A DNA stretch of 64,000 nt from Dehalococcoidia bacterium (GCA_963663185.1 OY760135.1:664081-728080), one strand, 5' to 3'. Numbered from the stretch's first letter, positions 2,953 to 49,800 are shown. Notes: generated from the letters alone by a model not told the origin. Translations and numbers: made by a program.

Positions 2953-3004
2953 CGCACGACCCAACGAACGGTCTCGCCCACTTCGGCCGAGAAAGGAATT
3001 GACC

Positions 3005-13372: not shown

Positions 13373-13482
13373 GAGCTGATCCTGTTCCTTTCCAGTCCGA
13401 TTCCATTCAGAGTGTCGCGCGGGCGAGGCCTGTTGTACTCAATGTGCAGTCACTTTGCACTCCGCCTGCACTCAGCTTGCAC

Positions 13483-30040: not shown

Positions 30041-32335
30041 TTGGTACGTGCGATAATGCGCGAAGACGGTTCTGCGGTTGGCCATTGGAGCGACCGTGCG
30101 TCTGGGGGTGAAGTCGTGACCAAGACAGCGCGACCAAGTCGGCGGCAGACGGCGGCAGCGACCGAATCGACGGGCAAGCGAGTGTCGGCGTTGGCCATTC
30201 CGGCCTGGCTGCCATTGGGAGGGCTGCTGTTGGTCTCGGGCGCGGAGACGGTTCGCGTGACCGGAGCGCATCGCGAGCTGTTCTTCAACATCGATCACTT
30301 TTGGGTGCTGTATATGTTGCTGCCCTTCGTGATCGGGATCATCGTCTACGGACTGGTACGGCGATCGCGAATTTGGCGACTGGGTGAAACGTCGTTCAAT
30401 CTGCGCAATGGCCTGGGCAGCTTCGATCATCTACAGCTGCGATTGACCCGGGTCTTGCGCGGCGGCGCGGGGACCGAACGGGTGTTGCGCGACCCGTACT
30501 CAGGCGTGATGCACATGTGCATTATGTCTTCGATGATCGTGCTGTTTCTGGTGACGGCGTTGCTGGCGATCGACGACTACATCCCGGTCGACATCCTGGT
30601 CGGGCCGCGCTATCTGGGCTATTCGTTGGTGGCGGACGTCTTCGGGTTGATCGGGATCATTGGCGTGGCGATGGCGGTGGCTCATCGATGGGTGCGACCG
30701 CGCACGGCATGGTTGCCGACCTGGGAGGACTGGCTGATTCTCGGCGGATTGGGGTTGCTGTTGGTTACGGGATTCGTTGTCGAAGGGTTGCGGATTCACA
30801 CGTCGGAGATTGATGTCAATCCGCAGTGGTCGTACTGGTCGCCGGTGGGGTACGTGGTGGCGTTGATGTTCTCGGGCGTGCGGATTTCGGCGGCGTTGGA
30901 CATCCATACGGCGCTGTGGTGGGTACACATGATCGGCGCGCTGTCGTGGATCACGCTGCTGGGTTACTCGAAGCTGAATCATCTGGTGCTGGCCCCGGCG
31001 AACGCGTTCCTGAAGAGCACGGCGGCGCCTGGCAAGCTGGAGCTGATCCAGAACATTGAAGAGCAGGAACACTTCGGCGTGTCGCAGCTGGAGCACTTCT
31101 CGATGAAGCAGCTGTTCGAGCTCGATGTCTGCGTGCGCTGCGGGCGTTGCACTGATAACTGCCCGGCCGACATTGCCGGCCAACCGCTCTCACCGATGCA
31201 CATCATCCAGGATCTGAAGTCGTACGCGACGTCGGTGGGCGAGCGCAAGGTGGCGAATCTGGTGCAGGGCAATGACCTGAATTTCGGGCTGGAGGACGAG
31301 GCGGCGATGGTGGGCGGCGTGGTACGAGATGAGTCGCTGTGGGCGTGTCGGACCTGCGGCGCGTGCGTGGAGGCGTGCCCGGTCTTCATCGAGCATGTGC
31401 CGACGATTGTGGATATGCGTCGTTCGCTGGTGATGGAAGAGGCGCGGATGCCGGAGACGGTGCAGGGCACGCTGGAGACGCTGGAACGTCAAGGTCATCC
31501 CTGGCGCGGGACTCCGTACACGCGGGAGAGCTGGATGGAAGGGATTGAGGTACCGGAGTGGACGGGCGAGCAGGACTATCTGTACTTCGTCGGTTGCACG
31601 GGAGCGTTCGTCGATCGGGCGCAGGCGATCACGCGATCGGTTGTCTCGTTGTTGCGTGAGGCGGATGTGTCGTTCGGCGTGTTGAAGGGGATGGAATCGT
31701 GCAACGGCGACCCGGCGCGGCGCCTGGGGCACGAGTACCTGTACCAGATTCTGGCTGAAGGGTTGATTGAGCTGTTCAACGAAACGGGCGTCAACGAGGA
31801 GCAGAAGACGGTGATCACGCACTGTCCGCACTGTTTCAACACATTCCTGAACGAGTATCCGGAGATGGGCGCGAAGTTCCAGGTGATACACCACACGCAG
31901 TTGCTGGAGCAGCTGATGGATCGTGGCCAGTTGGTCGCCCGCGCGGACGGTCCGGAGCAGACGATCACGTATCACGACAGCTGCTACCTGGGTCGGCACA
32001 ACGACATTTTCGAGGCGCCGCGTCGGATTTTGGAGCAGGTGCCGAACGTGACGTTGATTGAGATGCCTCGGAGTCGCGAGCAGGGACTCTGTTGCGGGGC
32101 TGGCGGCGGCAACATGTGGATGGAGGAGCAGGGCAAGAGTCGGGTCAATGAGGTGCGGGTTGAGGAGGCGGTATCGACGGGCGCGGACTCGGCCTGCACG
32201 GCGTGTCCATTCTGCATTCAGATGTTTGACTCGGGCATCGGCACGGTGCAACTGGATGTCGAGGACGAGGACAAGCTCAAGGTGCTGGATGTCGCAGAAC
32301 TGCTCCAGGCTGCGGCCGTCTCGGATTCCGATTAG
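30041..32335 (+). CDS. membrane-bound Fe-S oxidoreductase (NarI/HdrE-like TM domain + 2x[4Fe-4S] + CCG domains; HdrD/GlpC/DsrK-like)
   Basis: Multiple TM helices in the N-terminal half. CxxCxxCxxxCP sites at ..CVRCGRCTDNCPA.. and ..CRTCGACVEACPV.. Two CCG cysteine-rich domains (..YFVGCTG.., ..CCGAGGG..). The exact start is uncertain. Confidence 0.7.
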   Translation: MVRAIMREDGSAVGHWSDRASGGEVVTKTARPSRRQTAAATESTGKRVSALAIPAWLPLGGLLLVSGAETVRVTGAHRELFFNIDHFWVLYMLLPFVIGIIVYGLVRRSRIWRLGETSFNLRNGLGSFDHLQLRLTRVLRGGAGTERVLRDPYSGVMHMCIMSSMIVLFLVTALLAIDDYIPVDILVGPRYLGYSLVADVFGLIGIIGVAMAVAHRWVRPRTAWLPTWEDWLILGGLGLLLVTGFVVEGLRIHTSEIDVNPQWSYWSPVGYVVALMFSGVRISAALDIHTALWWVHMIGALSWITLLGYSKLNHLVLAPANAFLKSTAAPGKLELIQNIEEQEHFGVSQLEHFSMKQLFELDVCVRCGRCTDNCPADIAGQPLSPMHIIQDLKSYATSVGERKVANLVQGNDLNFGLEDEAAMVGGVVRDESLWACRTCGACVEACPVFIEHVPTIVDMRRSLVMEEARMPETVQGTLETLERQGHPWRGTPYTRESWMEGIEVPEWTGEQDYLYFVGCTGAFVDRAQAITRSVVSLLREADVSFGVLKGMESCNGDPARRLGHEYLYQILAEGLIELFNETGVNEEQKTVITHCPHCFNTFLNEYPEMGAKFQVIHHTQLLEQLMDRGQLVARADGPEQTITYHDSCYLGRHNDIFEAPRRILEQVPNVTLIEMPRSREQGLCCGAGGGNMWMEEQGKSRVNEVRVEEAVSTGADSACTACPFCIQMFDSGIGTVQLDVEDEDKLKVLDVAELLQAAAVSDSD

Positions 32336-32533
32336 GGCGCCGCTGAATCTACGCTGCTGCGCAGGGGCGCGGCGAAGTGACGAAGCCGGCTTGCTCGGCG
32401 CTCAGTTTGTGCGCACATGTAGGCGGTACTGGATTCTGTATCCCAGCTGATTGCCTGAGCTGGTTGGGTTCGGCACAATATGCGATTGGACGCGCGATTC
32501 GCGTCGACGCGAGCATCAGTATGTGAGGAACCG

Positions 32534-33337
32534 ATGAACGTCATCGTCTGCGTGAAGCAGATTCCCGATCCCGAGACGCCTGCGGCGGCCTTCAAGGTTG
32601 ACGAGCAGGCGATGCAGGTCATGCCGGCGCAGGGAATATCGCCGGTGATATCCCCGTTTGACGCGCAAGCGGTCGAGGCCGCGTTGCGGATCAAAGATGC
32701 GGCTGGAGAGGGTTCGGTGCAGGTGATATCGCTCGGGCCCGACTCGGCGCGTGATGCGATCAAGCATTCGTTGGCGATGGGCGCAGACGATGGCTTTCAT
32801 CTGAAGGATGCTGCTTTTGAAGGCGGCGACGCGTGGACGACGGCGTTGACGCTGTCGAAGGCAATTCAACATGTTGGGCTGCCGGATGTGCTGATCTTCG
32901 GGCGTCAGGCGGCGGACTGGGACCAGGGCACGGTCGGGAGCATCGTGGCTGAGCTACTGGACCTGCCGTCGGCGACGGTATTGCGGGCGGTCGAGCTGAC
33001 GGATGGTGGCATCACGGTGTCTCGCGTGGTGGCGGACGGCTTTGAGACGGTGGAGTTGCCGACGCCGTGCGTGTTGACGATTTCGAACGAGTTCGGCGAT
33101 CCGCGTTATCCGCAGCTGCGTCAGATTATGCTGGCGGCGCGCAAGCAGGTAGTCGAGTTGGGCGCGTCTGATCTGGGATTGGATGCGTCTGAGGTCGGCG
33201 CAGCGGGCGCTCGCATACAGATGCACGCGCTGTTCCAACCGACGAGTGATGTCGAAGTGGAGATCATTGAGGGCGACACGCCGGACGAGAAGGCGGCCGG
33301 CCTCGTGAACGCGCTTCGCGCAGCGAAGATCCTGTAG
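32534..33337 (+). CDS. etfB: electron transfer flavoprotein beta subunit
   Basis: MNVIVCVKQIPDPETP..; ..VISLGPD.. and ..FGRQAADWDQGTVG.. Confidence 0.85.
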   Translation: MNVIVCVKQIPDPETPAAAFKVDEQAMQVMPAQGISPVISPFDAQAVEAALRIKDAAGEGSVQVISLGPDSARDAIKHSLAMGADDGFHLKDAAFEGGDAWTTALTLSKAIQHVGLPDVLIFGRQAADWDQGTVGSIVAELLDLPSATVLRAVELTDGGITVSRVVADGFETVELPTPCVLTISNEFGDPRYPQLRQIMLAARKQVVELGASDLGLDASEVGAAGARIQMHALFQPTSDVEVEIIEGDTPDEKAAGLVNALRAAKIL

Positions 33338-33442
33338 CGCGAAACGCGGCGGTTGCGGCGCATCCGCGCTTGGATTGCCGCAGCCGACGCGACCGTCAGA
33401 CGACCAACACACGACCGAACTTGACAGACTGGGGCAGAGCAC

Positions 33443-34417
33443 ATGGCGCGCATTCTGGTGATTGGCGAAGCGGACGGCGGCGAGCTGACCGCACCGACGT
33501 TGGAGATACTGGGCGGAGCGAGGCGGCTCGCGTCCGAGCTGGGCGGCGATGTGGCCCTCGGGCTGATCGGCGCGGGATTGGGCAGTGCCGCGGCGGCGGC
33601 CGGTTCGGCTGGCGCGGACACGGTGTACACGGCTGACTCGGAGTCGCTGTCGGTGTACCAGACGGAGAGCTATCTACCGTTGGCGCAGGCGATCGTCGAG
33701 CAGTCTGCGCCGTCGGTCGTGCTGATGGCGCAGTCGAGCATGGGGCGTGACCTGGCGCCTCGGCTGGCGACGCGTCTGGGCAGCGCGGTCGTGATGGATG
33801 CGTTGGGGTTGGAAGTGGATGGCGACCGAGTGAAGGCGACTCGGAGCTGCTACGGCGGCAACGCGCGTCAGGTCGTGACCGTGCAGACCGATCCGCAGCT
33901 GATTACGGTGCGAGCGAAGGCGCAGGATCCGATGGCGCCGGATGCGTCGCGTTCGGCAGAGGTGATTGCGGTGGAGGTGGGTGAGCGGGAGCTGCGCGCG
34001 CGCACGACCGGCAAGGAATTGGCCGAGTCGGAAGGCGTGCGGCTGGAGGACGCGGAGATCGTGGTCTCGGGCGGGCGCGGTTTGGGTGGGCCTGAGGCGT
34101 TCTCGGATCTGGAGCGGTTGGCGGGCGTGTTGCAAGCAGCGGTCGGATCGTCGCGAGCGGCCTGTGACCTGGGCTGGTATCCACCGTCGCAGCAGGTAGG
34201 GCTGACCGGGACCGTGGTCTCGCCGACGCTGTATCTGGCGATTGCGATTTCGGGCGCGAGTCAGCACATGGCGGGTTGCGGGGGATCGAAGAACATTGTC
34301 GCGATCAACAAGGATCCGGACGCGGCGATCTTCAACTTTGCGCGATTCGGGATCGTGGATGACTACAAGAAGGTGTTGCCGTCGCTGGAGTCAGCGTTGG
34401 CGGCGGCGCTGGAGTAG
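33443..34417 (+). CDS. etfA: electron transfer flavoprotein alpha subunit
   Basis: MARILVIGE..; C-terminal FAD-binding region ..YLAIAISGASQHMAGCGGSKNIVAINKDPDAAIF.. Confidence 0.85.
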   Translation: MARILVIGEADGGELTAPTLEILGGARRLASELGGDVALGLIGAGLGSAAAAAGSAGADTVYTADSESLSVYQTESYLPLAQAIVEQSAPSVVLMAQSSMGRDLAPRLATRLGSAVVMDALGLEVDGDRVKATRSCYGGNARQVVTVQTDPQLITVRAKAQDPMAPDASRSAEVIAVEVGERELRARTTGKELAESEGVRLEDAEIVVSGGRGLGGPEAFSDLERLAGVLQAAVGSSRAACDLGWYPPSQQVGLTGTVVSPTLYLAIAISGASQHMAGCGGSKNIVAINKDPDAAIFNFARFGIVDDYKKVLPSLESALAAALE

Positions 34418-36685: not shown

Positions 36686-37306
36686 ATGCGCTCAATTGGA
36701 CTGACTGGCGGGATCGCATCGGGCAAATCGACGGTCGTGCAGCAGCTTGAGGCGCTCGGCGCTGCGACGATTGACGCGGATCTGCTGGGGCATCAGACGT
36801 ACGAACCGGGCACGGAGACATTTAGGCAGGTCGTGGCGGCGTTCGGCGACGATCTGGTCGCGGAAGACGGCACGATTGATCGCAGCAAGCTGGGTCCGAA
36901 GGTGTTCGGGCATCCGGACGGAATGAAGCGGTTGACGGATATCGTCTGGCCGGGGATTCGCGCGTTGGCGGAGGCCGAATTGTCGCGACTCGCAGCGGCT
37001 GGGACCGAGGTGGCGGTGTTGGAGGCGGCGGTCATGATCGAAGCCGGTTGGCAGGACCTGGTGGATGAGGTGTGGGTGGTGGCGGTCAGCCGCGAGACGG
37101 CGAGCGAACGGTTGATGGCGCGCAATCGCTTTTCGGCCGAGGAAGCGGATCGCCGGATCGAGTCTCAGATCACGAATGACGAGCGATTGAAGCACGCTGA
37201 TGTGTTGATCTCGAATGACTGCAGCATGGAGGTCGCGGCCGGGCGAGTGGCCCGCGCCTGGGCCGGATTGCAGGCTGAGAGCTCGGCTCAGATAGGCTCA
37301 AGCTAG
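36686..37306 (+). CDS. coaE: dephospho-CoA kinase
   Basis: MRSIGLTGGIASGKSTV..DADLLGH..; P-loop and CoaE motifs. Confidence 0.85.
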   Translation: MRSIGLTGGIASGKSTVVQQLEALGAATIDADLLGHQTYEPGTETFRQVVAAFGDDLVAEDGTIDRSKLGPKVFGHPDGMKRLTDIVWPGIRALAEAELSRLAAAGTEVAVLEAAVMIEAGWQDLVDEVWVVAVSRETASERLMARNRFSAEEADRRIESQITNDERLKHADVLISNDCSMEVAAGRVARAWAGLQAESSAQIGSS

Positions 37307-37393: not shown

Positions 37394-38293
37394 TTGATGA
37401 CGACTGCAAGCCAACCGATCACCGAATACCGCAGCTGGGCGGTGGAGGAGTTCCGCCTTGAGGAGGAGCCGTACTACGTCCCCGTCGCGGACGAAGTCGA
37501 GATCTTCCAGGCGGCTTGGAACAGCAAGATTCCGGTCTTGTTGAAGGGCCCGACGGGCTGCGGGAAGACGCGGTTCGTCGAGTACATGGCATACCACCTG
37601 AACCGGCCGCTGTCGGTGGTGCGCGATGGTCGGACAGAGATCGAGACTGAGACGAATTTGCCGCTGGTGACCGTGGCGTGCCACGAGGATTTGACGGCGT
37701 CCGACCTGGTTGGTCGCTATCTGCTTGAGGGTAACGAGACGGTCTGGATTGATGGTCCGCTGACGCGCGCGGTCAAGGCGGGCGCGATCTGCTATCTCGA
37801 TGAGGTGGTGGAGGCGCGCAAGGACACGACGGTGTTGATTCACCCGTTGACGGACCACCGCCGGATTTTGCCGATTGAGAAGAAATCGCAGCTGCTGCAG
37901 GCTCGCGACGGTTTCCTGTTGGTGATCTCCTACAACCCGGGTTACCAGTCGGCGCTGAAGGATTTGAAGCAATCGACGCGGCAACGGTTTGTGGCGGTCG
38001 AGTTTGATTACCCGCCGCGCGAGACGGAGGCGGAGATTGTGCGGCATGAGTCGGGTTGCGACGCAGACGTGGCGTTGAACCTGGCGAAGATGGCGGAGAA
38101 GATTCGCAATCTGCGAGAGCACGGCCTGGCCGAGGGTGCGTCGACGCGTCTGTTGATCTACGCCGGTCGGATGATTGCCGAGGGTGTGAGCCCGCGGCGG
38201 GCTTGTCAGGTGGCGATCGTCTGGCCGCTGACGGACGACGGCGAGGTTCAGCGGTCGATCGAGGAAGTGGTTTCCTCGATCTTTGAGGAATAG
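37394..38293 (+). CDS. MoxR-class AAA+ ATPase of the CbbQ/NirQ/NorQ/GvpN family
   Basis: ..[19 protein letters not shown].. (Walker A), ..[10 protein letters not shown].. (Walker B); CbbQ-like length of 299 aa. Confidence 0.8.
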
Positions 38294-38305
38294 CACGGAA
38301 TCGCT

Positions 38306-38878
38306 GTGCGGATTGGCATCGTATCGGACATTCACTGCAATGCGGCGGCGTTGGACCGCGCCGTGGAGCAGATGGGTGACGTAGACGAGATTCTCTGCGC
38401 GGGCGACGCCTGTTACCAGTACCGGTTCTCGAACGAGGTGGCGGAGCGGCTGCGCCAGCTCGGCGGTCGCTACGTGTTGGGGAACCATGAGGAGATTCTG
38501 CTGTCGGAGGCGGGCGCGCGGGCGCAGGCGTCGCCGACGGTGGATCATGCACTGCTGGAATGGACGCGAGATCAGCCGCAGTTGCTGCGCACGGAGATCG
38601 ACGGGAAGCGTCTGCTGATGTTTCACGCGACGCCGTGGGCGCCGTACAAGGATTATCTGTTTCCGCACGATCCGCAGCTGCAACGGTTGGCGGAGGAAGA
38701 GGCCGACTTCATCATCTATGGGCATACGCATGCGCCGTTGGTGACGCGAATCGGTCGAGCGCTGATCGTGAATCCGGGTTCTGCGGGGGAGATGCGGGGC
38801 GCGGAGCAGGTGCTGACTTATGCTGTGTTAGACACGGCTGACGATCACGCAGAGATCGAACAGATCCGATTTGACTGA
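38306..38878 (+). CDS. metallophosphoesterase (YfcE/MJ0936-like)
   Basis: MRIGIVSDIHCN.. (D-x-H), ..GDACYQY.., ..GNHE.., ..GHTH.. are calcineurin-like motifs. Confidence 0.8.
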   Translation: MRIGIVSDIHCNAAALDRAVEQMGDVDEILCAGDACYQYRFSNEVAERLRQLGGRYVLGNHEEILLSEAGARAQASPTVDHALLEWTRDQPQLLRTEIDGKRLLMFHATPWAPYKDYLFPHDPQLQRLAEEEADFIIYGHTHAPLVTRIGRALIVNPGSAGEMRGAEQVLTYAVLDTADDHAEIEQIRFD

Positions 38879-41800
38879 TTCCGAGCGCAACAACGGCGAC
38901 CGTTGGCTGAGAGCCGAGGGATTGCCGGTTGGGAAGACGCCCATGACCGACCAGACCAACTCCGCCACATTGACCGAAGACGCGCGCGAACAGTTACGCC
39001 AGTTTCCACCGGCGTTGAGCCAGGACTTTGAGGCGGCGCTCGCCGCCGTGAGCGAGGTTCTGGAGCCGGACGAGCTAGGGTCGTGGCTGAACGATGGTCT
39101 GGACATTGCGCGGCATTCGCTGCGCAGTTGGGAGGCGGCGGCCGAGTACTTCCGCGCCTCAGGGCCGGTGTTGGAACAGATCACATACGACCGCATGCGT
39201 GAGTGGTGCGCGGTGGGGATCGAGCTGATGGACACGTCGCCGGCGTTGTCTGGGGCGATGTTCCGCGCCTCGCCGTCGGTGTTGCCGCATCTGTCGGTAG
39301 CGCAGGCGAGCGATTGGGCGGGGCAAGGCAAGTCGCTGTACAAGGGGACGTGGAAGTCAGGATCGCTGTCGGCGCAGTACTTCGATGTGGCGCCGCAGAT
39401 TTTGCCGCATCTGCCGCTGTCGCAGATGCGCCTGTTGGTGGATCTGATTGACTCGCTGGCGTCGCACTCGTACGAGCTGGCGTCTGCCTGTCTGGGGATG
39501 GCGCCTGGCGTGTTGTCGCAGTTGGATCGCGGTGATCGGGCGCCATTCCTTGAGTTTGGCGGGATTGTGGCGCATACGGCGTGGGTGGACGCGCGGGTCT
39601 ACTTCGAGCGTGGGCCGGGCGCGTTGCGGCAGGTGTCGGAGGAGCAGCGTCCGCGCTATCTGTCGCTGTCCGGTCAGGTGGCGATGCAGGTGGGTCGACT
39701 TGGGCATCCATACTTTATTGAGGCCGCGCAAGCGTTGGCGGAGGTGGACAAGGAGATTCACGAGGGGTTGCTGGAGCTGTCTGAGCAGTTGGCGCCGCAT
39801 TCGGGCGACGCGGCGATGGAGTTTCTGAAGTCGTCGCCGCAGGTAGCGGAACGCCTGGGGATTGACGACATCGCTCGCTGGCAGGAGTTCGGACTTGGCA
39901 TCCTGCAACAGTCGCGCGACGGCGGCGAGGCGTTTTTCCGACTCGAGTCGGCGCGCGGCGAAGAGGTGATGGAGGCGCTGAGCAGTCGTGTGGATCTGGA
40001 TCGCGTTTCGGAGCTGATTCGGATGTATTGCAAGGCGCTCACGGGCGTGGATGTGGGTGTGAAGGCGTCGGAAGAGCTGACGGCGAAGGGTGTGGGTTGG
40101 GTGGACGAAAGCAGTCCGACGACGGAGGGGACGACGATCTATCTGCCGGAGAATGTCGAGCGATACCAAACGAAGGACGAGAATTTCGCGGTCTACAAGG
40201 TGTTCGCGACGCATCAGGCTGGGCGGCTGGAGTTCGGCTCGTTTAACTACGAGTCGGCGACTGATTCCGAGCTGTTCCCGCAGCCGTCGAATGGTGCGCA
40301 GAACGGCCACGGTCATGGTCGGGGCGCAAGTGTGGCGGCGGTGGTCCAACAGGACGCGGAGAGTGGCGAGATTCACACGGACATGGAGCGATTCTTCGAT
40401 CAGTTCGAGGATCGAAAGCTGGCGCACGATCTGTTTACGATCGTGGAGGACACGCGCATCGACACGATCGTGAAGCGTGAGTACGCCGGGGTGCGTCGCG
40501 CGTTCACGCGGCTACAGCAGTCAGCGGCGGAGCGACGTCGCCCGGTGGAAGATATGCCGGCGAGACAGGCGATGGTGGAGAATTTACTGCGGGCGTCACT
40601 GGATGAGGTGGGCCGGATCCGTTGGCCGCAGGAGCTATCTGAGGAGTTGCGGACGCCGCTGCGGATTCTGAATCGGATCCGCGAGGACGGCGCGACGGTG
40701 CAGGACACGGCAGCGGCGACGGCGTTGCTGTATGAGTGGTTGTCGAATGTGCCGAATGTGGAGCTGGAGTCGGAAGATTGGTCGGATATTGAGCAAGAGA
40801 TGAGCGGCGATCCGGATGCGGGCGAGGATGGCGACATGATGCCGGGTTCGGGTTCTTCTGGCCTGGAAGAATCGTTCATGCCCTTCATGCCGGGTTCGGA
40901 GGAGCGACCCTACGACAGCCCGGACCCTGTGGATTTCCGCGGCGACTTCAAGCCAGAGTTGGTGCAGTTGCTGATGAAGTTGAAAGGCGAGATCGGTTCG
41001 GGCGACGCTCCGCCGATTCCGCTGACGAAGGAGCAGTTGCAGGAGCTGTTGGAGAAGTCAGTTGAGATTTCGATCAACGAGCTGATGGACATGGACTTGG
41101 CGGAGTCGTCGGGCATGTTCCTGGACAACCTGTTGAAGGAAGTCAATCAGATTCAGGGAGAGCGGCAAGAGGGTCAGCAGGCGATGGGTGACGACTCGAC
41201 CGGGGCGGAAGATGATGGGGAGTTGCCGGTTGAGGCGCAGTCGTTCTACTACGACGAGTGGGATTTCCGGGCGGCGGACTACAAGCCGCGCTGGTGTCGG
41301 GTGCAGGAGCAGCGCGGTGAGTTGGGCACGACGGGGTACTACACGGAGACGTTGCACGAGCACACGCAGCTGGTCAAGGAGACGCGCAAGCAGTTTGAGA
41401 TGCTGCGACCGGAGATGTTCCGCAAGATGAAGCGTTTGACGGACGGTGAAGATTACGATCTCGACGCGGTGATCGAGTGGTACACGGAGAAGATTGCCGG
41501 CGCCACGTCGGAGACGAAGCTGTTCTACCGACGGAACAAGGTGGAACGTGATGTGGCGGTGGCGTTCTTGTTGGATGTTTCCGCCTCGACGGATGAGGAG
41601 ATCCAGAAGCATCACGATCAGCGGCAGGACGATCAGTTTGACGATGATCCGCGCAAGTACCTGTCCTGGTGGGCGCAGCGTCGGGCTGAGGCGGCGCGTC
41701 ATCCGGGTAAGCGGATTATTGACCTGGAGAAGGAAGCGGTGGTCCTGCTGATCGAGGCGCTGGAGACGATCGGGGATAAGTACGGCGTCTACGGATTCTC

Positions 41801-42236
41801 TGGCTACGGACGGGACAATGTGGAGTTCTTCGTCTACAAGGACATGGATGAGCCGTTTGGCGATCGGATCAAGGAGCGGATCGACAAGATTGCCCCGGTC
41901 CGCTCGACGCGGATGGGGCCGGCCATCCGCCACTGTATCTGGAAGCTGCAGAACACGGATGCCAAAGTGAAGATCCTGATGCTGTTGTCGGACGGTCGGC
42001 CGCAGGATCACGGATACGGTCGCGACCGCACGGAGAAGGAATACGCGATTCACGACACGAAGATGGCGTTGACGGAGGCGCGTCGTGAGGGCATGGTTCC
42101 GTTCGCGCTGACGGTGGACCGGGCGGGGCATGACTACCTGAAGCAGATGTGTCAGGACATGGCGTACGAAGTGGTGGCGGACATTGAGTCCTTGCCGCGG
42201 CGCCTGCCGGCGCTGTATCGCCGTTTGACTGGCTAG
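38871..42236 (+). CDS. large VWA-domain protein, CbbO/NorD-like partner of the CbbQ-type ATPase
   Basis: The C-terminal about 350 aa form a VWA domain with a MIDAS motif (..VAFLLDVSASTDEE.., ..LMLLSDGRPQD.., ..TVDRAGHDYL..). The N-terminal about 750 aa are an unrecognised helical/acidic region. Total 1121 aa from the ORF start; the true start may be a few codons in. Confidence 0.65.
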   Translation: MTDSERNNGDRWLRAEGLPVGKTPMTDQTNSATLTEDAREQLRQFPPALSQDFEAALAAVSEVLEPDELGSWLNDGLDIARHSLRSWEAAAEYFRASGPVLEQITYDRMREWCAVGIELMDTSPALSGAMFRASPSVLPHLSVAQASDWAGQGKSLYKGTWKSGSLSAQYFDVAPQILPHLPLSQMRLLVDLIDSLASHSYELASACLGMAPGVLSQLDRGDRAPFLEFGGIVAHTAWVDARVYFERGPGALRQVSEEQRPRYLSLSGQVAMQVGRLGHPYFIEAAQALAEVDKEIHEGLLELSEQLAPHSGDAAMEFLKSSPQVAERLGIDDIARWQEFGLGILQQSRDGGEAFFRLESARGEEVMEALSSRVDLDRVSELIRMYCKALTGVDVGVKASEELTAKGVGWVDESSPTTEGTTIYLPENVERYQTKDENFAVYKVFATHQAGRLEFGSFNYESATDSELFPQPSNGAQNGHGHGRGASVAAVVQQDAESGEIHTDMERFFDQFEDRKLAHDLFTIVEDTRIDTIVKREYAGVRRAFTRLQQSAAERRRPVEDMPARQAMVENLLRASLDEVGRIRWPQELSEELRTPLRILNRIREDGATVQDTAAATALLYEWLSNVPNVELESEDWSDIEQEMSGDPDAGEDGDMMPGSGSSGLEESFMPFMPGSEERPYDSPDPVDFRGDFKPELVQLLMKLKGEIGSGDAPPIPLTKEQLQELLEKSVEISINELMDMDLAESSGMFLDNLLKEVNQIQGERQEGQQAMGDDSTGAEDDGELPVEAQSFYYDEWDFRAADYKPRWCRVQEQRGELGTTGYYTETLHEHTQLVKETRKQFEMLRPEMFRKMKRLTDGEDYDLDAVIEWYTEKIAGATSETKLFYRRNKVERDVAVAFLLDVSASTDEEIQKHHDQRQDDQFDDDPRKYLSWWAQRRAEAARHPGKRIIDLEKEAVVLLIEALETIGDKYGVYGFSGYGRDNVEFFVYKDMDEPFGDRIKERIDKIAPVRSTRMGPAIRHCIWKLQNTDAKVKILMLLSDGRPQDHGYGRDRTEKEYAIHDTKMALTEARREGMVPFALTVDRAGHDYLKQMCQDMAYEVVADIESLPRRLPALYRRLTG

Positions 42237-42250
42237 GTAGCGTTATCGCT

Positions 42251-42598
42251 ATGGGTGCGATCGCCGGGAGCTTGACGGTTGGCGGGATTTCAGCTGCCTT
42301 TGCGGCGACGCTGATTGGTCAGGATTCGACGCCGCTGTACATCGTCTGCGTGTCGGTGGCTGGCGCGGGCTTGTTGCTGATGCTGTTGCATGTGGCGCGG
42401 CAGCGAGGCGACACGTCGGCGCCGTGGTACGCCTTGGCTCCGATGGCGATCGTGGTGGCCCTGTTGGGAATTGCGGCGTCGGGAGCGACGTGCGGTGTTG
42501 CCTGCATCGCCTGGGGCACGCCGGCCGCAGCCGCCACGCTGGCTGTTCCCGATCTGCGAGGTTGGCTAAGTCGGAAGCGTCCGTTGCGAGAGCTGTAG
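42251..42598 (+). CDS. small hypothetical membrane protein (3 predicted TM)
   Basis: Hydrophobic 115-aa ORF immediately after the VWA gene. Confidence 0.4.
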   Translation: MGAIAGSLTVGGISAAFAATLIGQDSTPLYIVCVSVAGAGLLLMLLHVARQRGDTSAPWYALAPMAIVVALLGIAASGATCGVACIAWGTPAAAATLAVPDLRGWLSRKRPLREL

Positions 42599-42615
42599 TT
42601 CGCTAATCTATATCT

Positions 42616-43245
42616 ATGGTGATGTTCGACAGACTTCCGATGCGCGATGTGTTGGTGGGCCGACTCGGTTGGTCGGAGGAGGACGCGCGGGCTTTCCTCG
42701 AGGTGATGGAGTCGCCGACTGAGCATCTCGCCACGCGAGATGACGTTGCCGCGGTGCGCTCAGATCTCGATCAGGCCAGAGAAGACATCGTGCGTCTGAA
42801 GGCGGATGTGGCGCAGTTGAAGATGGATGTCGCAGAGCTGAAGGCGGATGTGGCGCAGTTGAAGACGGATGTCGCAGAGCTGAAGGCGGATGTGGCGCAG
42901 TTGAAGACGGATGTCGTAGAGCTGAAGGCGGATGTGGCGCAGTTGAAGATGGATGTCGCAGAGCTGAAGACGGATGTCGTAGAGATTCGGTCAGATGTCA
43001 GACGGTTGGATGAGAAGGTTGAGTACTTGCGAGTATCGCAAATGGAGATGGAAGAGCGCCTCATTCGATACATCGACAGCAAAATGGCGGATTTGGAGAG
43101 AACGATGGCTGCGGAACGGGAGGCCAGCGAAGCGAGATTCATGGCTGCGCTGCGGGACAGCGAAAGAAGAATGCTGATGCTGGTGTCCAGCGTGGGGTTC
43201 GGCACGATTGGGATCGGAATCGCGATCCTGGTCCGAGTCCTCTGA
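42616..43245 (+). CDS. DUF1640-like coiled-coil protein with C-terminal TM anchor and expanded 8-aa/16-aa repeats
   Basis: ..LKADVAQLKMDVAELKADVAQLKTDVAELKADVAQLKTDVVELKADVAQLKMDVAELKTDVVE.. then ..LVSSVGFGTIGIGIAILVRVL. The DNA shows about four 48-bp tandem units at ~42790-42990. Confidence 0.5.
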   Translation: MVMFDRLPMRDVLVGRLGWSEEDARAFLEVMESPTEHLATRDDVAAVRSDLDQAREDIVRLKADVAQLKMDVAELKADVAQLKTDVAELKADVAQLKTDVVELKADVAQLKMDVAELKTDVVEIRSDVRRLDEKVEYLRVSQMEMEERLIRYIDSKMADLERTMAAEREASEARFMAALRDSERRMLMLVSSVGFGTIGIGIAILVRVL

Positions 43246-43269: not shown

Positions 43270-46200
43270 TCAGTTTGTGAGGCGCAGTTCGCGGTTGAGT
43301 TCGAGGCGCAGGAACCAGCGCCAGGTCGCCAGGACACCGATGACGAGGACGCCGGCGAGGACGCCGAAGGCGATACCGAGGATCTGCCAGTCGGTCTCGA
43401 TCTGGAAAGGTGGTAGCACCGTTCGGCCCTTTTCATCGATCTCGAGATAAGCGAGCAGCAGTAGCGAGATGCGGTTGCCGAGCAACACACCGAGCACGAG
43501 ACCGGTACCGACGATGATGGCGTACTCGAGGGCAATTTGGATGAGGATGCTGAGGTTACCGACACCAACGGTTCGAAGTAGCGCCATCTCGAGCCGCCGT
43601 TGGCGGGCGGAAACGGCCATTGAGACAAGGAAGGCGAGCGCAAGAAGCAGCGAGATGGCGATGAAGGCGACGAGCAGGATTCCCGATCCGCCAGCTGTGG
43701 TGAGCGGGTCACGCCCGCTCTGTTCTAGCTGCTCGATCTGATCGTTGAAGCGACCGAGCGAGTATCGGGGACGATTGAGTTCCCACTTGATCGCCTCACG
43801 GGCCTCAGGATCATCGACGAGGTCGAGCCAAGCCTCGGTGGGCATGATGGATGGTCGCAGCGTGGTGACCGAGCCCAGGTGATAGAGCGCGTCGTAGTCG
43901 GCGACGATGAATGGCAGTTCGTCGGGGCGCAGGGTGGGGAACAGGTCAATGATCGACATGATGCGCGCCGAGACCACGAACTGATCGAGGCGTAGCGTGT
44001 AGCGATCGCCCACTTCCAGCAGCTGGCGCTCGGCGAAGCTGGCGCTGACGATGGTGGGCAGTGTGCAGCGCGTATTGGAGCAGAACGACGGGTCGGCGAA
44101 GTGAGCGGCGCGTAAGCCGGGCGACTGCCCGATGCTGGGATAGAAGGCCATCACGTGTTCGCCGGAGACCGGATCGTCTGCTTGCTCGAAGGCAACCTCA
44201 TCGCCGGAGCCGCGACGCTGTACGTAAGACAGCCAGCCGCGATGCTCGAAGTCTTCGATGATCAGTTCGCGACCATCGGGTTGGACAGCGGTGACGGCAT
44301 CGAAGAAGATCGTCGCTGGTTCGGAGGCGAAGAGTCCGTAGGGTTCGCTCATGACGATGCTGTGCAGGGTGTAGGGGCTGGCGGTGCTGGAGCCAACGAT
44401 TTCGCGTTGGAAATCAATCTCGACGGCGGTCCAGGGCGACTCTGGGCGAGGCATGTCGAGTCCGCCAGCGGTGTGGTATCGGCCGTCGCCGTCTCGGATG
44501 CGGAACCAGAGTGATTGGTCGGACTCGCCCAGACCGAGTCGTACCCAGAAGCGGAGGGTTTCGGTCTCTGGCGGGATGCTGATGCCGCGTCCGACGGGCG
44601 GCACGTCGATGCTGGCGATCAGGTCTTCGAAGGTCATCAGCGAGAGGTCTTCGCGAAACCACATCATGTCGAGCGCGGCGCGCGGTTCGAGGCCGAGGAT
44701 GTTGACGCTGGCAGCGGTGCCGACGCTGCGGCCGGCGGAGACCTTGGATCGGTGGACGGCGGAGACGGCGTCAACGCCCTCGAGCGGGCCGAGTCGGTTG
44801 CGGACGCCGTTGGCGGACGAATAGCCGCTCTCGCCGAGTCCGACGCGGAACTCGACGCCGGTGTCGTACTCGATGCGTTCTTCCAGGGAACGTTCGATGG
44901 TGTCGGCGTAGGAGGCGGCAAAGGTGCCGAGCGCGGCGCCGAGCATGAGCAGGATGGTGAGCCGCGCGGCAGGTCCGACGGTGCGGCTCACGTATCGCAA
45001 CGTGGAGGCGATGGAGAGCGGGAAGCGGTCGTAGGTCAGCCAGGCGAAGAGTCGGTAGATATAGGGCAGGAAGCGGAGGATGACCAGTGTGGCTGCGAGC
45101 GCGAAGAGGATCGGGGTGCTGAGCAGGAGCGGGTCGGCGGCCAGTCCGCCGACGCTGTTGCGCTCGAAGACGGTGCCTTTGAGATCGGCTTCGAAGATCA
45201 GGCCGACAGCGACGAGGACGAGGGCGATGTCGAGGTAGTAGCGCTGCAGGGCGTTGGGACCGCTGGGTCGGGCGATGCTGCGCAGGCGCTCGGAGAGGAC
45301 ACGGGTGCGACTGGCGACCACAAGCGGCGCCAGTGTGAAGAGGACCGCAACGATGGCGCCAGCGGCGGAGAGCAGGAACGCCATGTCGGTGAGCGTGGTG
45401 GGGATCGTGGCGCCGCCGGTCAGCGGTTCGAAGACGGGCGTATATCCGAGCAGTCCGATGATGCCGATGGCGATGAAGGGCGCCACGGCCGCAGCGACGA
45501 TCGCGAGCAGGATGCCTTCAATCGCCGTGTGCGAGACGACCTGCATGATCGAAGCGCCGCGGGAGCGCATCGAGAAGAGCTCTTCGCGTCGTTGGGCGAC
45601 CTGGACCCCGGAGACGATGACGACGTAGAAGAGGGCGATGCCGACCACTTGGGCGAGCAGCATGAGGATCGGGACCTGGGTGAAGCTGAGGTCCTTGACG
45701 AAGGTCTCGAGGCGAGGTTCGATCGGCGATCTGACGCCGCCGCTGATTGAACGCAGGTCTTCGCGGAGCAAGTCGAAGGATGCTCTGGTCTGATCGAGGA
45801 CGGCAACGTTGAGTTGGTCCGTGTCGATCTCGGAGATCCAGGTGGTATTGACGAGGTAGCCGCTCATCACCTGAGGGAGTTCGAGGTCGAAGGCCTGGGA
45901 CGCGACGATCAGTGGGATGACCTGAGCTCGCGAACTGCTGATGTAGACCGGGCCGGTGATGTTGTCGGGGACGCGAGCCCAGAATGCCTCTGCTGCTTCG
46001 CTCTCGGCGGGTTCGACGAACCCGGTGACGACGACCGGTATGAGGCGCTGAACCAGCATGGTCGGTTCGCAGGGCGGTCGAGGCGGCGGCGGCGGCCCAC
46101 CGGGCGGTGGATCGGGTTCGCGGTCGCACTCGTCGAAGCCGTCGATCAGTTCCCAATTGCTGCCGACCTGGATGCCGTAGCCGGACGCGGCGCGAACTGG

Positions 46201-46695
46201 TAGTGCGACTTCGATCGGGCCGCTGAGCGCGCCGTCGGCGGTGAGGACGGGAGGATTCGGGAATCGTCCTTCGACCATGCTGAGATGCGGCTCGGCTTGA
46301 TCGAGGGACGCGAGAAAGGCGGTTGGGTTGATGACCTGACCGCGACGCAGGCCGACATTGATCTGCGTCGGGACGGTGGCGCGGAAGCGCAGGCGTTGGG
46401 ACTCGAGATCGCCGAAGCGTTGGCTGATTGAGTCTTCGGCGTATTCGCGCGCGGAGTCGTTGGGTCCGCCGGCGAGCGGGATGTTGTTGAGCGAGCTGAA
46501 CATCTGCCGGCGATCGGTGAGGTCTTCACGCAAGCTGACGGTGAGCGAGAGGTCGGAGACGGCTCTGGTGTAGATCGTGGTGGACGCCATCAAGACGGCG
46601 GCGACCAGGATGCCAGCGGCGATCACGAGCTGGAGTCTCCAGCTGTCGCGCATACGACGTAAGACAAAGCCGAGTATCGCGCCGACTGACTCCAC
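43270..46695 (-). CDS. FtsX-family permease, giant two-FtsX-domain type (1141 aa)
   Basis: Repeated 4-TM FtsX modules with large extracytoplasmic loops; proline tract ..EPDPPPGGPPPPPRPPCEP..; MacB/DevC-like topology. Confidence 0.65.
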   Translation of the reverse strand: MESVGAILGFVLRRMRDSWRLQLVIAAGILVAAVLMASTTIYTRAVSDLSLTVSLREDLTDRRQMFSSLNNIPLAGGPNDSAREYAEDSISQRFGDLESQRLRFRATVPTQINVGLRRGQVINPTAFLASLDQAEPHLSMVEGRFPNPPVLTADGALSGPIEVALPVRAASGYGIQVGSNWELIDGFDECDREPDPPPGGPPPPPRPPCEPTMLVQRLIPVVVTGFVEPAESEAAEAFWARVPDNITGPVYISSSRAQVIPLIVASQAFDLELPQVMSGYLVNTTWISEIDTDQLNVAVLDQTRASFDLLREDLRSISGGVRSPIEPRLETFVKDLSFTQVPILMLLAQVVGIALFYVVIVSGVQVAQRREELFSMRSRGASIMQVVSHTAIEGILLAIVAAAVAPFIAIGIIGLLGYTPVFEPLTGGATIPTTLTDMAFLLSAAGAIVAVLFTLAPLVVASRTRVLSERLRSIARPSGPNALQRYYLDIALVLVAVGLIFEADLKGTVFERNSVGGLAADPLLLSTPILFALAATLVILRFLPYIYRLFAWLTYDRFPLSIASTLRYVSRTVGPAARLTILLMLGAALGTFAASYADTIERSLEERIEYDTGVEFRVGLGESGYSSANGVRNRLGPLEGVDAVSAVHRSKVSAGRSVGTAASVNILGLEPRAALDMMWFREDLSLMTFEDLIASIDVPPVGRGISIPPETETLRFWVRLGLGESDQSLWFRIRDGDGRYHTAGGLDMPRPESPWTAVEIDFQREIVGSSTASPYTLHSIVMSEPYGLFASEPATIFFDAVTAVQPDGRELIIEDFEHRGWLSYVQRRGSGDEVAFEQADDPVSGEHVMAFYPSIGQSPGLRAAHFADPSFCSNTRCTLPTIVSASFAERQLLEVGDRYTLRLDQFVVSARIMSIIDLFPTLRPDELPFIVADYDALYHLGSVTTLRPSIMPTEAWLDLVDDPEAREAIKWELNRPRYSLGRFNDQIEQLEQSGRDPLTTAGGSGILLVAFIAISLLLALAFLVSMAVSARQRRLEMALLRTVGVGNLSILIQIALEYAIIVGTGLVLGVLLGNRISLLLLAYLEIDEKGRTVLPPFQIETDWQILGIAFGVLAGVLVIGVLATWRWFLRLELNRELRLTN

Positions 46696-46828
46696 CCGCG
46701 CCCCCGTTGTCTGAACATCATCCGCCGAAGCTCGGCGGCGATGTTGAATTTCGATACTGCTAGTAGTCTACGAACAACCTTCGGTCTGACATACCTTGAA
46801 CGCGTCAGCGGCTGGGGGACGAGGCAGT

Positions 46829-49800
46829 ATGGGCGGACTGTTCAGCTCTATTCCGACGGCGTTTCGGATTGCGGTGCGGCGCTTGAACGGCAACCGTCGA
46901 CTGATGGCGGCGGTTGCGGTCGGCGTGATTCTGGCCGTGGCGTTGATGGCGTCAACGTCGATCTATCGCAACACGCTGCAGGATCTGGGCTTGCAAACGG
47001 ATCTGAAGCGGGTGTCGGATCAGGATCTGGATGTGCGGGTCCTGAATGCCGCGCACGGGCTCTCGGGCGGGCAGGCGGAGGAGTCGTTTGCGACGATTGA
47101 TCGCCGTCTGCGGATTCCGCGCGAGTACATCTCGGATACGACCCATTCGCTGACATCGGCGACGTTCTTCATGACCGAGGTCGGGGATACACCGCCCGAT
47201 GAGGACCCACGCGACCGGGCGCGGGTGTTGTGGTTTGAAGGCGTACGTGAGCATGTTGAGGTGGTGGAAGGTCGTTGGCCGACGGCGGCGCCCGCGGCGA
47301 CGCCTGAGGATGCGCCGGTGATTGAAGTCGCGATGGGCGTGGAGGCGGCCGCGTCGGGCGGGTATGAGTTGGGGGAAACGCGCGATATCCATGCGTCATG
47401 GCGGGATGACGCCGGCCCGATCCAGCTGCTGGTGGTAGGGCTGATCCGACCGATCGATTACACGGAGCGTTACTGGGGAGTTCGGCGCGACCACTTCCAG
47501 GTGCCGGTGGAGAAGACGGACGCGTTCGCGTTCTTTGCGCCGCAAGAGACGCTGTTGGCTTCGATGGCGGGCTTCATGCCGGAGCTGCGCGGTCGACTTG
47601 AGGTGACGGCACAAGTCGATCGGGCTGCGTTCGTGGCGGATGATGCGGGGATCGCGGCATTGCGCTTCCGCGGCGCGTTTGAGGCGATTTCGAAGGAGAT
47701 CGATCGGGCGCGGATCGAGTCCGAGATCGTGAACGTACTGAACGACTTTGAGACGAAGGATTTCTTCTCCTCGATTCCGCTGCTGGTGCTGACGCTGCAG
47801 ATCGTAGGAATTGTGCTGTTCTATCTGGTGTTGGTGTCGACGATGGTGGTGGAGCGGCAATCGGCGGAGGTGGCGCTGTTGAAGTCGCGCGGGGCGGGGT
47901 TGGGACACATTATGTCGATTTCAACGATTGAGGGGTTGTTGCTGGTGGCGCTGGCGCTGGGATTGGGGCCGCTGGTCGCGCGCGAGGCGATTGCGTGGCT
48001 GGGATACTCGCCGGCGTTCGAGGGTTTGACGGGCGGCGCGCGCCTGAGTGTGGCGTTGGATGCCGAGGTATACATCTGGGCGGCGATTGGCGCGGTGCTG
48101 AGCTTTGTCGCGTTGCTCTGGCCGGCCTGGAGATCGAATCGCGCGACAGTGGTGGCGTTCGCTCGCTCGACATCGCGACCGCAGGACCGACCGGCGTTTC
48201 AGCGCTATTACCTGGACCTGGTGGTTGTGGGCGTTGGCGCGCTGCTGTTCTTCCAACTGCAGGAGTCTGGCTCTCTGGTGACGGAGGATCTGTTTGGCGG
48301 GTTGCAGCAGGATCCGTTGCTGTTGATCGCGCCGGCTGTGTTCGTGGTGACGGTAGCGGTGTTGTTCTTGCGTCTGTTTCCGCTGTTGTTGTCGGGAGTT
48401 TCGGCGATATCCCGACTGCTGGGCGGAGCGTCGATGCAGATGGTGCTGTGGCACCTGACTCGGGCCCCGGTGCAGCCGGGGCGGCTCGCCTTGCTGCTGA
48501 TCATGGCGACGTCGCTGGGCATGTTCGGCGGTACGTTCGGCGCGACATTGGACAAGTCGTTTGACGATCGGGCAGCGTATCAGTCGGGGGCGGCGCTGCG
48601 GCTTGGGGATTTGCGCAGTAGCGGTTCGTCCGTCTCGATGTTGGAGGCTGACCTGGCAGATGCGCCGGGGATTGGCGACGCGTCGTACGTGATTCGCGCC
48701 AATGCGTCGTTCTCGCGCGGCGCGCTCGACGTGACGGATGCGACGATTCTGGGCATTGAACCAGAGTCGTTTGTAGATGTGTTGTGGTTCCGAGAAGACT
48801 TTGCCTCAGAAGACGCGCGCGCGTTGGTGTCGCTGGCGACAGGTCCGGCGTTCGAGGTGGAGGAGATCGTGGTGCCGGCCGACGCGACCTACGTCGGGAT
48901 GTGGTTCTGGTTGCCGGAGACGAGCGGCGCGATCGCGCCGAATCTTCGCCTGGTGGACTCGTCCGGCCGTTTTCGCGATGTGGCGTTGCTCGGCTTGCCC
49001 CGCGGTCGCGGGTTCGGGATTGGTACGGATCATGCGGAGGGTTGGCGGTTTCTGTTTGGTGATCTGAGAAAGGGCGCCGGATCGCCGCACATTGGGCCGT
49101 GGACATTGCAGGGCGTCAATGTGCGTACGGCGGGCACGACCAACTTCTCGGGCACGGTCGGTTATGACGCGATTCAGTACACCAAAGAATCGACGCTGCC
49201 GGAGGACATTCTTGAGGCGGGTTTTGATGAGGGCGTGATCATTGAGAGCTTTGAAGAGCAGGGGCGTTGGACGGTCCTGACTGACACGACACGCGACGGT
49301 CCGTTGCCAGATGACGCGCGGTTGACATCCGCGCAGGCGTATGACGGCGAAGCGGGCATGCGATATGTCTGGAATCGCACGGTACGCAGCGGGATTCCGC
49401 GCGGGATTCGGCTGGTGGGACCGGATGATCCCTTGCCGGTCGTGGTGAGCAATACGTTCCTGCGAGAAGCATCGCTGGATATGGGGTCGACGATTTTGCT
49501 GGGCACATCAAGCGTGTATGTGCCGGCTCGGGTGGTCGGGAGCTTCGATCTGTTCCCAACCTGGGATCCGGAAGAGCCGCGCTCACTGATTCTGGCGAAT
49601 CGTGACTATCTGTACTACCGGGTGAATCGGAATCCGACGACGGTGGGCGCGCTGTCGCCGAACGAGGTCTGGATTCAGCCGACGGATGAGGATGGTCTGC
49701 GACAGCTGCGCACGTGGTTGGAGGTGGAGTCGCCCTGGAAGCATGATGCGTACGATGTCGACGCGATCCGCAATCTGCAGGACGAGGATCCGTTGGTGGC

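Follow-up and report, generated by a model that had tools for sequence, protein, structure and literature searches.

In 64,000 nucleotides (nt) of DNA from a Dehalococcoidia bacterium (GCA_963663185.1 OY760135.1:664081-728080; this whole stretch is called the window here, and positions are counted from its first letter) we analyzed a gene pair encoding a MoxR-type AAA+ ATPase and a protein of 1097 amino acids (aa) that ends in a domain of the von Willebrand factor A (VWA) type, here called the adaptor. By homology with NorQ-NorD and CbbQ-CbbO we consider it likely, with a probability of about 0.72, that the two proteins form a remodelling machine of this type, that the client is cytoplasmic and encoded elsewhere, and that the N-terminal part of the adaptor gives client specificity. 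The functional unit is the ATPase with its adaptor, and a small protein with three transmembrane (TM) segments, a coiled-coil protein and a pair of FtsX permeases, all encoded nearby, lie outside it. The dephospho-coenzyme A (CoA) kinase gene coaE and a small metal-dependent nucleotide phosphohydrolase, in the window a YfcE-type esterase, would be co-transcribed accessories. The system is an uncharacterised subfamily of a known machine, and the pair is conserved across a class of Chloroflexota, beside coenzyme-A and nucleotide-hydrolase genes.

As judged from its sequence, the ATPase belongs to the CbbQ/NorQ (CGN) subfamily of MoxR AAA+ ATPases. The Pfam domains AAA_5 (PF07728, 5.9e-31) and CbbQ_C (PF08406, 2.6e-31) were both found at full length, and nearly the whole protein could be aligned to solved structures (CbbQ 5c3c, 2e-104; NorQ 9qh4, 1.6e-95, and 9qhd, ~1e-95; 6l1q, 1.8e-95). 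Walker A (GPTGCGKT, 37547-37570) and Walker B (YLDE, DE at 37799-37804) are intact. The open reading frame (ORF) spans 37394-38293, and the start was placed at ATG 37397 from a database homologue and the upstream GGGAGAG. A clade-specific insertion of 18 aa (37610-37663) separates the Walker-A helix from the strand that comes next. ATPases paired with long adaptors carry 4-22 aa at this place, while the insertion is missing in CbbQ, NorQ and two NorQ-like plasmid genes; possibly it is where the enlarged adaptor makes contact.

The C-terminal 340 residues of the adaptor are NorD-like by every test applied, both in sequence and in the predicted structure. This part matched NorD with phmmer (9qhd_G, 2.7e-36), with the family profile (2e-61) and, for the Shinella NorD of a genuine norCBQD cluster, with hhalign (3.9e-44). 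The top six PDB matches in a Foldseek search with the predicted structure were all NorD chains of NorQD cryo-EM complexes (E 4e-13, target TM ~0.70). The MIDAS (metal ion-dependent adhesion site) consists of D879-x-S881-x-S883 (DVSAS, 41574-41588), T990 (41907-41909) and D1018 (41991-41993), where adaptor residues are counted from the codon at 38940 so that the initial Met is residue 2; all five positions were invariant in 70 homologues. Directly after DxSxS there is a 33-aa insertion. Also conserved are a pre-VWA YDEWDxR region and a C-terminal tail (LPxLYRxL or LPxLYRRLT), and the AlphaFold2 (AF2) model predicts a two-strand hairpin "finger" ahead of the VWA core (E767-775/E782-792, residues 767-792, 41238-41315). 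Three claims made about the pair in an earlier note on this DNA held up against the family models and the NorD matches in sequence and structure: a CbbQ/NorQ-type MoxR ATPase, a VWA partner of the NorD/CbbO type and a DxSxS MIDAS motif.

No curated model recognises the adaptor beyond the VWA core. PF00092, covering residues 952-1099 of the 1121-aa ORF described below, was the sole Pfam match. Pfam VWA_CoxE gave no match for the window adaptor, and two relatives (the adaptor of locus L176 and P0235) matched it only below threshold. In NCBIfam, the NorD model included, nothing matched the adaptor at an E-value of 0.01 or lower; the Prokaryotic Genome Annotation Pipeline does name the Shinella protein NorD. 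A PDB sequence search with the adaptor gave no CbbO match, and an Acidithiobacillus plasmid match that we considered as a CbbO source was only a fragment.

The earlier note described a VWA partner of 1121 aa. The protein is indeed far longer than NorD, but this ORF (38871-42236) begins too early, at a TTG that still belongs to the end of the esterase gene, whereas a database protein with 100% identity (P0001, 1097 aa) and all relatives begin at ATG 38943. The N-terminus had further been called an "about 750-aa unknown helical/acidic" region; a helical solenoid and a partly acidic linker are present, but the region can be divided into the solenoid, an N-domain with weak resemblance to that of NorD, and the linker. 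Together with the finger and MIDAS-bearing VWA domain the adaptor has four parts. The solenoid is built from 18 helices in two-helix repeats of ~38 aa, seen as internal repeats with segment hidden Markov models (HMMs), and its predicted local distance difference test (pLDDT) score in the AF2 model is ~97 for residues 10-300 and drops to 78-95 toward residue 340. Its structural matches were only designed helical repeats, PP2A-A and importins, the family profile matched symplekin and ApoA-I, and Foldseek of the N-terminal model against the PDB gave no significant match. The central domain, which is modelled with less confidence than the solenoid, carries the conserved motifs YKVxATHQAGxLEFG and FTIVEDTRID. 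Its profile matches to NorD 36-118 and 156-199 are collinear but insignificant (domain E-values 24-1500), and hhalign with one NorD (Shinella) aligned only the C-terminal part of the adaptor. In the linker, conserved helices with the motifs ATVEDxAEAT and RGDFKPELVQLL are set among acidic, low-confidence segments (pLDDT <50 at 620-649, 684-694, 707-726 and 736-763). The family profile touched CobT residues 101-269, at an E-value of only 0.0095, and no cobN was noticed among annotated neighbours, where no search aimed at cobN was made. A fusion of PAS-HisKA to the solenoid (P0192), which we considered as a functional hint, looks like a mis-called gene, and other fusions were shorter VWA variants.

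The adaptor family is large. A word-index search returned 667 relatives, and with the N-terminal 747 aa alone we obtained matches to 1118 representative clusters (50% identity); where a source was named, it was mostly Chloroflexota. The 172 related loci used to compare gene neighbourhoods came from species-representative genomes (one scan, 80 loci), from metagenomes (one scan, 80 loci) and from looking up distant members of the family. These fall into 56 clusters at 70% adaptor identity, of which 42 were usable with at least 2.5 kb of upstream DNA. Neighbours were scored by tblastn with defined queries, as greedy clustering of ORFs was too noisy in high-GC DNA. Only ATPase and adaptor were near-constant among the 172 loci, and in 39 of the 42 clusters the ATPase gene lay upstream of the adaptor at a distance of no more than 6 kb. 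Loci from other phyla or of unassigned origin, including one attributed to Deltaproteobacteria and Abyssubacteria-like relatives, contained ATPase and adaptor only, and no third recurrent gene was found in them. In two loci (L076 and L083) genes are inserted between ATPase, esterase and adaptor, but as clients these were rejected: the products are cyclophilins and proteins of BsuPI-like and BNR type, and none of the genes recurs. One record (OZ219765.1, loci L011 and L025) holds two copies of the whole block, from the electron-transfer flavoprotein (ETF) genes to the FtsX pair, at ~90% identity; this could be a true large duplication, or the assembly may have combined two strains. Full-text literature searches gave no paper combining CbbQ, Chloroflexi and VWA, and searches with SAR202/MoxR and coaE/MoxR surfaced no description of the adaptor subfamily.

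If the pair works as its relatives do, a hexameric AAA+ ring would hold one adaptor, with the VWA beta-hairpin finger inserted in the ring pore and the C-terminal tail docked on the ring. ATP hydrolysis would then twist or stretch the adaptor linker while the MIDAS face grips an acidic residue of the client enzyme, which the N-terminal solenoid and the N-domain could select and hold. The outcome would be the opening of a buried active site, either for insertion of a metal or cofactor or for release of a tightly bound ligand. The data themselves show the domain identities, the intact motifs, the structural resemblance to NorD and the patterns of conservation and synteny; complex formation, remodelling, the location of the client and any role of the esterase are inferred.

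Several observations weigh against this interpretation. Since no client was identified, the term remodeller derives entirely from homology, and the central domain shows only weak homology to the N-domain of NorD. In the full-length model the linker is predicted with low confidence and the VWA core with moderate confidence (mean pLDDT 71). In five loci (L005, L059, L067, L075 and L077) the adaptor is found without an ATPase gene within 10 kb, so that in some lineages the pair can be split, or the adaptor may act alone. Marine (SAR202-type) loci likewise keep the gene order downstream, with cinA, DUF4340 and an ABC system, and the conserved neighbours could reflect slow decay of gene order within one class rather than function.

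The gene directly upstream of the ATPase is coaE (Pfam CoaE, 6.4e-48; TIGR00152, 152.8 bits vs a cut-off of 65.55). It is the most conserved neighbour of the ATPase, holding this position in 26 of the 42 usable clusters, and in two further clusters (L092 and L099) it is relocated to just downstream of the adaptor. The earlier note also proposed that a YfcE-like phosphoesterase splits the ATPase/VWA pair, and this agrees with the position of the gene, with the family model (TIGR00040 YfcE, 63.9 bits vs a cut-off of 56.25; Metallophos_2, 1.8e-31) and with the motifs DxH (DIH), GD, GNHE and GHTH, all of which are kept; PDB relatives are 3rqz, 3ck2, 3qfm and MJ0936. An esterase of this type sits between ATPase and adaptor in 6/42 clusters only. 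A NUDIX hydrolase occupies the same place in 15/42, and in 2/42 separate clusters a PHP phosphoesterase lies immediately upstream of the ATPase, while 19/42 have no hydrolase; the three types were never found together in one locus. For the three NUDIX proteins we examined, CoA pyrophosphatase (NF007980) was the best match (1e-24 to 7e-30), though the scores do not reach the 134 bits of the curated cut-off, and two of them carry a near-complete NudL signature. In L087, L088 and L091 the genes of the cluster overlap or abut. Two further genes were considered as linked and set aside as single occurrences: a LarC nickel-insertion gene directly after the adaptor in L087 (SAR202; 13204-14415) and a MoaD-MoaE fusion directly before coaE in L088 (5138-5836).

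Client genes were sought by tblastn with NorB, NorC, RbcL (a hand-written query sequence) and a CoxL-like protein over the window and 178 sequences with 2.77 Mb of flanks, and in the window also by Pfam scans of large ORFs. By neither route did we find Rubisco, NO reductase or CO dehydrogenase genes in the 64-kb window, and in the 178 sequences homologues of NorB, NorC and RbcL were absent except from the control locus L094, which has a true norCBQD cluster; the absence of a nearby client enzyme, already suggested in the earlier note, therefore applies to the window and its close relatives. That the pair is an ordinary NorQ-NorD for NO reductase, or an ordinary CbbQ-CbbO for Rubisco, with the client gene at a distance, would fit the closeness of the ATPase to both solved proteins, the NorD-like VWA domain and the name "NorD" that Joint Genome Institute annotations give to many homologues. 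Still, the flanks lack these clients although the control was detected, the NCBIfam NorD model does not match the adaptor, the adaptor exceeds NorD by 450 aa and differs from it at the N-terminus, and neither CbbQ nor NorQ has the ATPase insertion. In a rough, distance-based neighbour-joining tree of the VWA domain only, the family also branches apart from NorD and from a NorD-like Thiothrix protein. Either role is poorly supported and very improbable. The same tree bears on a different proposal, a maturation factor for molybdoenzymes of the xanthine dehydrogenase/CO dehydrogenase family (CoxSML-like) encoded elsewhere, analogous to CoxD/CoxE. MoxR and VWA proteins do mature CO dehydrogenase (PMC4240915, PMC3471820), and cox genes are widespread in SAR202 (PMC11245477). 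A canonical client gene in the same operon in other genomes, which the earlier note named as counting against its reading, was found in part. Full-length adaptor homologues directly follow coxM-, coxS- and coxL-like genes in L106 (543-7514) and a coxL-like gene in L176 (83-5366), co-directionally in both; the L176 protein is 32% identical over adaptor residues 154-1097 (E 2e-149) with all motifs kept, and no ATPase gene was seen on these two short contigs. In L135 (3767-10623) a convergent coxL/coxS-like pair comes right after ATPase and adaptor, and in L096 a coxL-like gene lies 8 kb upstream of the pair. However, these are only 3-4 distant loci of the 172, and in the tree they belong to a heterogeneous second branch, while the window falls in a coaE-linked Chloroflexota branch, both being apart from NorD. 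Within the branch of the window, tblastn found no coxL-like gene within 10 kb at any locus, nor in the window itself, and the VWA_CoxE model misses the window adaptor. We consider a role in molybdoenzyme maturation possible, though unlikely for the window pair.

A further proposal starts from the neighbourhood of the pair. Rubisco activase works together with a phosphatase that degrades the inhibitor, and by the same logic the pair could belong to an enzyme-repair module tied to CoA or nucleotide-cofactor metabolism, in which it would free a trapped ligand, the phosphohydrolase would destroy this ligand and CoaE would serve resynthesis. The position of coaE, which stays adjacent even after rearrangement, the alternation of three unrelated phosphohydrolase families, the CoA pyrophosphatase-like NUDIX proteins, the overlapping genes and the many CoA-dependent enzymes of the window are in line with this, as is cinA (NAD salvage), which is convergent within 6 kb downstream in 17/35 clusters. 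Yet this is guilt by association: the NUDIX scores fall short of their cut-off, nearly half of the clusters lack a hydrolase, the members outside Chloroflexota lack coaE, and broad synteny is kept in these lineages anyway. Moreover, we know of no MoxR system that works in this way, and the literature searched contained no paper linking dephospho-CoA kinase with MoxR, NorQ or CbbQ. Repair of this kind seems doubtful, and a link to CoA or nucleotide-cofactor maintenance, which would be new, is a hypothesis based on association only. In its boldest form the pair would be the core of a cofactor-maintenance module of the Dehalococcoidia class, unrecognised before, that expels a damaged or inhibitory nucleotide-type ligand from a CoA-dependent enzyme or a dinucleotide-cofactor molybdoenzyme, the ligand then being degraded by an interchangeable YfcE, NudL-like NUDIX or PHP hydrolase with CoaE co-expressed; we regard this as a long shot. 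The earlier note proposed a module for an envelope or metal-centre target, possibly the FtsX permeases, or a MoxR-VWA stress or defence-like system, and raised the question whether the order of the five genes from ATPase to coiled-coil gene is conserved. In an envelope role the 3-TM and coiled-coil proteins would link the pair to the adjacent giant FtsX permeases; in a defence role the genes would be an anti-phage MoxR-VWA system. The five genes are co-directional and tightly packed, the FtsX pair does adjoin them in the window, and MoxR-VWA conflict systems exist (PMC7159879). Nevertheless, synteny in the 172 loci ruled out a five-gene operon as the unit, as the 3-TM and coiled-coil genes are not kept beyond close relatives. 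A homologue of the 3-TM gene was found only in loci with at least ~82% adaptor identity, and only there does the FtsX pair adjoin the cassette, always as a pair; at 67% adaptor identity the downstream genes are instead a metallo-beta-lactamase-fold gene and cinA. Because the FtsX pair and the 3-TM gene are limited to this clade and the coiled-coil gene to a few relatives, the permeases are not a co-conserved target. Nor did a defence role find support: PADLOC returned only P-loop-local matches to IetA (1e-5, residues 39-77) and coiled-coil noise, and the locus shows stable chromosomal synteny with housekeeping genes rather than a variable island. Both the envelope and the defence role are poorly supported and the least probable of all those considered, and a NorQ-NorD/CbbQ-CbbO-type remodeller with its client encoded elsewhere is the interpretation we prefer.

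The 36.7-43.2 kb region contains six co-directional, closely packed genes (Table 1). Upstream the block borders on a DinB-like gene in divergent orientation, downstream on a convergent gene for an FtsX-type permease. All five co-directional ORFs placed at 37394-43245 in the earlier note were present in our ORF analysis. The gaps between them are 12, 64 (counted from ATG 38943), 14 and 17 nt, and no terminator-like sites were found between the genes from the ATPase to the coiled-coil gene.

Table 1. Genes of the co-directional block and parts of the adaptor (window coordinates)
Feature	Position	Strand	Basis or remark
coaE (dephospho-CoA kinase)	36686..37306	+	First gene of the block; Pfam CoaE, TIGR00152
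CbbQ/NorQ-type MoxR AAA+ ATPase, 298 aa	37397..38293	+	AAA_5 and CbbQ_C
YfcE-type metallophosphoesterase, 190 aa	38306..38878	+	Metallophos_2, TIGR00040; slot between ATPase and adaptor
Long NorD-like VWA adaptor, 1097 aa	38943..42236	+	Identical database protein P0001
Adaptor N-terminal alpha-solenoid, residues ~2-340	38943..39959	+	AF2 model, repeat HMMs
Adaptor central domain, residues ~345-560, weakly NorD-N-domain-like	39972..40619	+	Family profile
Adaptor linker, residues ~560-755	40620..41204	+	Low-pLDDT segments, conserved helices
Adaptor NorD-type VWA domain	41205..42233	+	phmmer, profile, hhalign, Foldseek
Hydrophobic protein, 115 aa (3-TM)	42251..42598	+	No family match
Membrane-anchored coiled-coil protein, 209 aa	42616..43245	+	Coiled coil, C-terminal TM segment, tandem repeat

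The 115-aa hydrophobic protein, which had no family match in Pfam or NCBIfam, is probably outside the system. The last gene of the block had been described as a repeat-expanded gene for a membrane-anchored coiled-coil protein, and the repeat, the coiled coil and the C-terminal TM segment were all found; the label DUF1640 was not confirmed, being absent from the 25 Pfam families listed. Tandem Repeats Finder detected a 42-nt tandem repeat with 4.3 copies and 96% matches (42796-42977 or 42796-42984). Reading N-termini by eye, we found the gene in 8 of 38 close relatives, the repeat unit being different in each, and it was absent from the rest. It is fast-evolving, dispensable and outside the system. 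Seven homologues (L008, L026, L027, L034, L037, L040 and L044) have an N-terminal MVTFDxLPMRDVLVxRLGW motif in common and, where the full sequence was seen, keep the C-terminal anchor, while their repeat units are wholly different. The two FtsX-type permease genes that follow (43270-46695 on the minus strand and 46796-50230 on the plus strand) are divergent and encode paralogues of 1141 and 1144 aa with ~27% identity.

The source is an uncultured, probably sponge-associated member of the class Dehalococcoidia (Chloroflexota). The window has a G+C content of ~63%, and the nearest loci are from Dehalococcoidia and Chloroflexota metagenome-assembled genomes with bin names that suggest sponge metagenomes. 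Pfam scans of the large ORFs gave CoA-transferases, enoyl-CoA hydratase, acyl-CoA dehydrogenase, ETF, an EtfD-like protein, PanE, IlvD, Rho and others of this kind. With its CoA-transferases, enoyl-CoA hydratase, acyl-CoA dehydrogenase, ketopantoate reductase and coaE, the gene content of the window is strongly CoA-centred; three of the CoA-transferases are paralogues of family III (2882-4219, 5002-6300 and 22850-24037). Genes for an EtfD-like membrane Fe-S protein (CCG and 4Fe-4S domains), EtfB and EtfA follow each other at 30041-34417. This ETF trio was also found upstream of coaE and the ATPase in 9/42 clusters, down to 26% adaptor identity (L089), and relatives of the EtfD-like protein with a weak NarI-like N-terminus were seen as well. 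Elsewhere in the window, a 932-aa ORF without a Pfam match at 1e-5 (19106-21904, minus strand) lies in the lowest-GC stretch (18-20 kb, GC 0.565), and the GC skew is strongly positive (about +0.2) across most of the last ~50 kb (12000-64000), despite genes on both strands.

MoxR-VWA pairs are widespread and, to our knowledge, the known clients are few: Rubisco, NO reductase, CO dehydrogenase, methanol dehydrogenase and fumarate reductase/complex I. The subfamily described here is large and close to fixation among the Chloroflexota of sponges and the abundant marine ones of SAR202 type. Two leads to a client emerge, the coxMSL-like molybdoenzymes in the sister branch and, in the branch of the window itself, the association with coaE and nucleotide hydrolases, and the solenoid with the N-domain is a well-delimited candidate for the specificity module, which interaction screens could use. 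The discovery of a client would add a new class of enzyme maturation or repair to organisms that cannot yet be cultivated.

One of the nearest characterised relatives of the window pair is NorQ-NorD, the chaperone that inserts FeB into nitric-oxide reductase (PDB 9qh4-9qhg; PMC13036017, PMC9976466), in which a finger in the pore, a tail on the post-sensor-1 loop and a linker essential for FeB insertion were described (PMC13036017), and the variable N-domain of the adaptor was proposed as specificity element (PMC9976466). The ATPase shares fold and motifs with NorQ (E ~1e-95), and the adaptor shares with NorD the C-terminal 340 aa, including the pre-VWA finger region, the MIDAS and the tail, as well as the domain order of N-domain, linker and VWA, although the similarity of the N-domain is only marginal; the best structural match of the adaptor model is NorD in the NorQD complex. 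In contrast to NorD (~640 aa), the 1097-aa adaptor has an extra solenoid of ~340 aa, a longer linker with motifs of its own and the 33-aa insertion after DxSxS, the ATPase differs from NorQ by its 18-aa insertion after the Walker-A helix, and norCB was nearby in 0/172 loci.

CbbQ-CbbO is a MoxR-type Rubisco activase (PDB 5c3c, 6l1q; PMC4660213, PMC5437159). The window ATPase is slightly closer to CbbQ (2e-104) than to NorQ, an N-terminal extension being common to it and CbbQ, and the Q6O1 design would be compatible with one large adaptor whose VWA domain, at the C-terminus, carries a MIDAS. Unlike in that system, no Rubisco genes adjoin the pair, and in a comparison by length CbbO (759 aa for A. 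ferrooxidans CbbO2) is shorter than the adaptor by ~340 aa. The CoxD-CoxE(-CoxF) system for the maturation of CO dehydrogenase (PMC4240915, PMC3471820), whose CoxD and CoxE build the Mo active site of this enzyme, likewise combines a MoxR ATPase and a VWA protein acting on a metalloenzyme, and it is the distant full-length adaptor homologues that adjoin coxMSL-like genes, co-directionally in L106 and L176. The window ATPase, however, is placed by CbbQ_C and its matches to solved CbbQ and NorQ, the adaptor remains below the VWA_CoxE model, and there are no cox genes near the clade of the window.

A relative with a split adaptor was found on a 46.6-kb plasmid of Miltoncostaea oceani (NZ_CP064358, L093, 35210-38920), where a CbbQ-family gene is followed by a gene for a 362-aa hypothetical protein and one for a 548-aa VWA protein. 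The former aligns to window residues 304-437 with 31% identity (E 1e-19), HxxGxxEFG included, and the latter to residues 744-1097 with 41% identity. In contrast to the window, the adaptor is here divided into two genes just after HxxGxxEFG, and the insertions after the MIDAS motif and in the ATPase are missing. As the plasmid is borne by a cultured actinobacterium in which the system is uncharacterised, this relative could be experimentally tractable.

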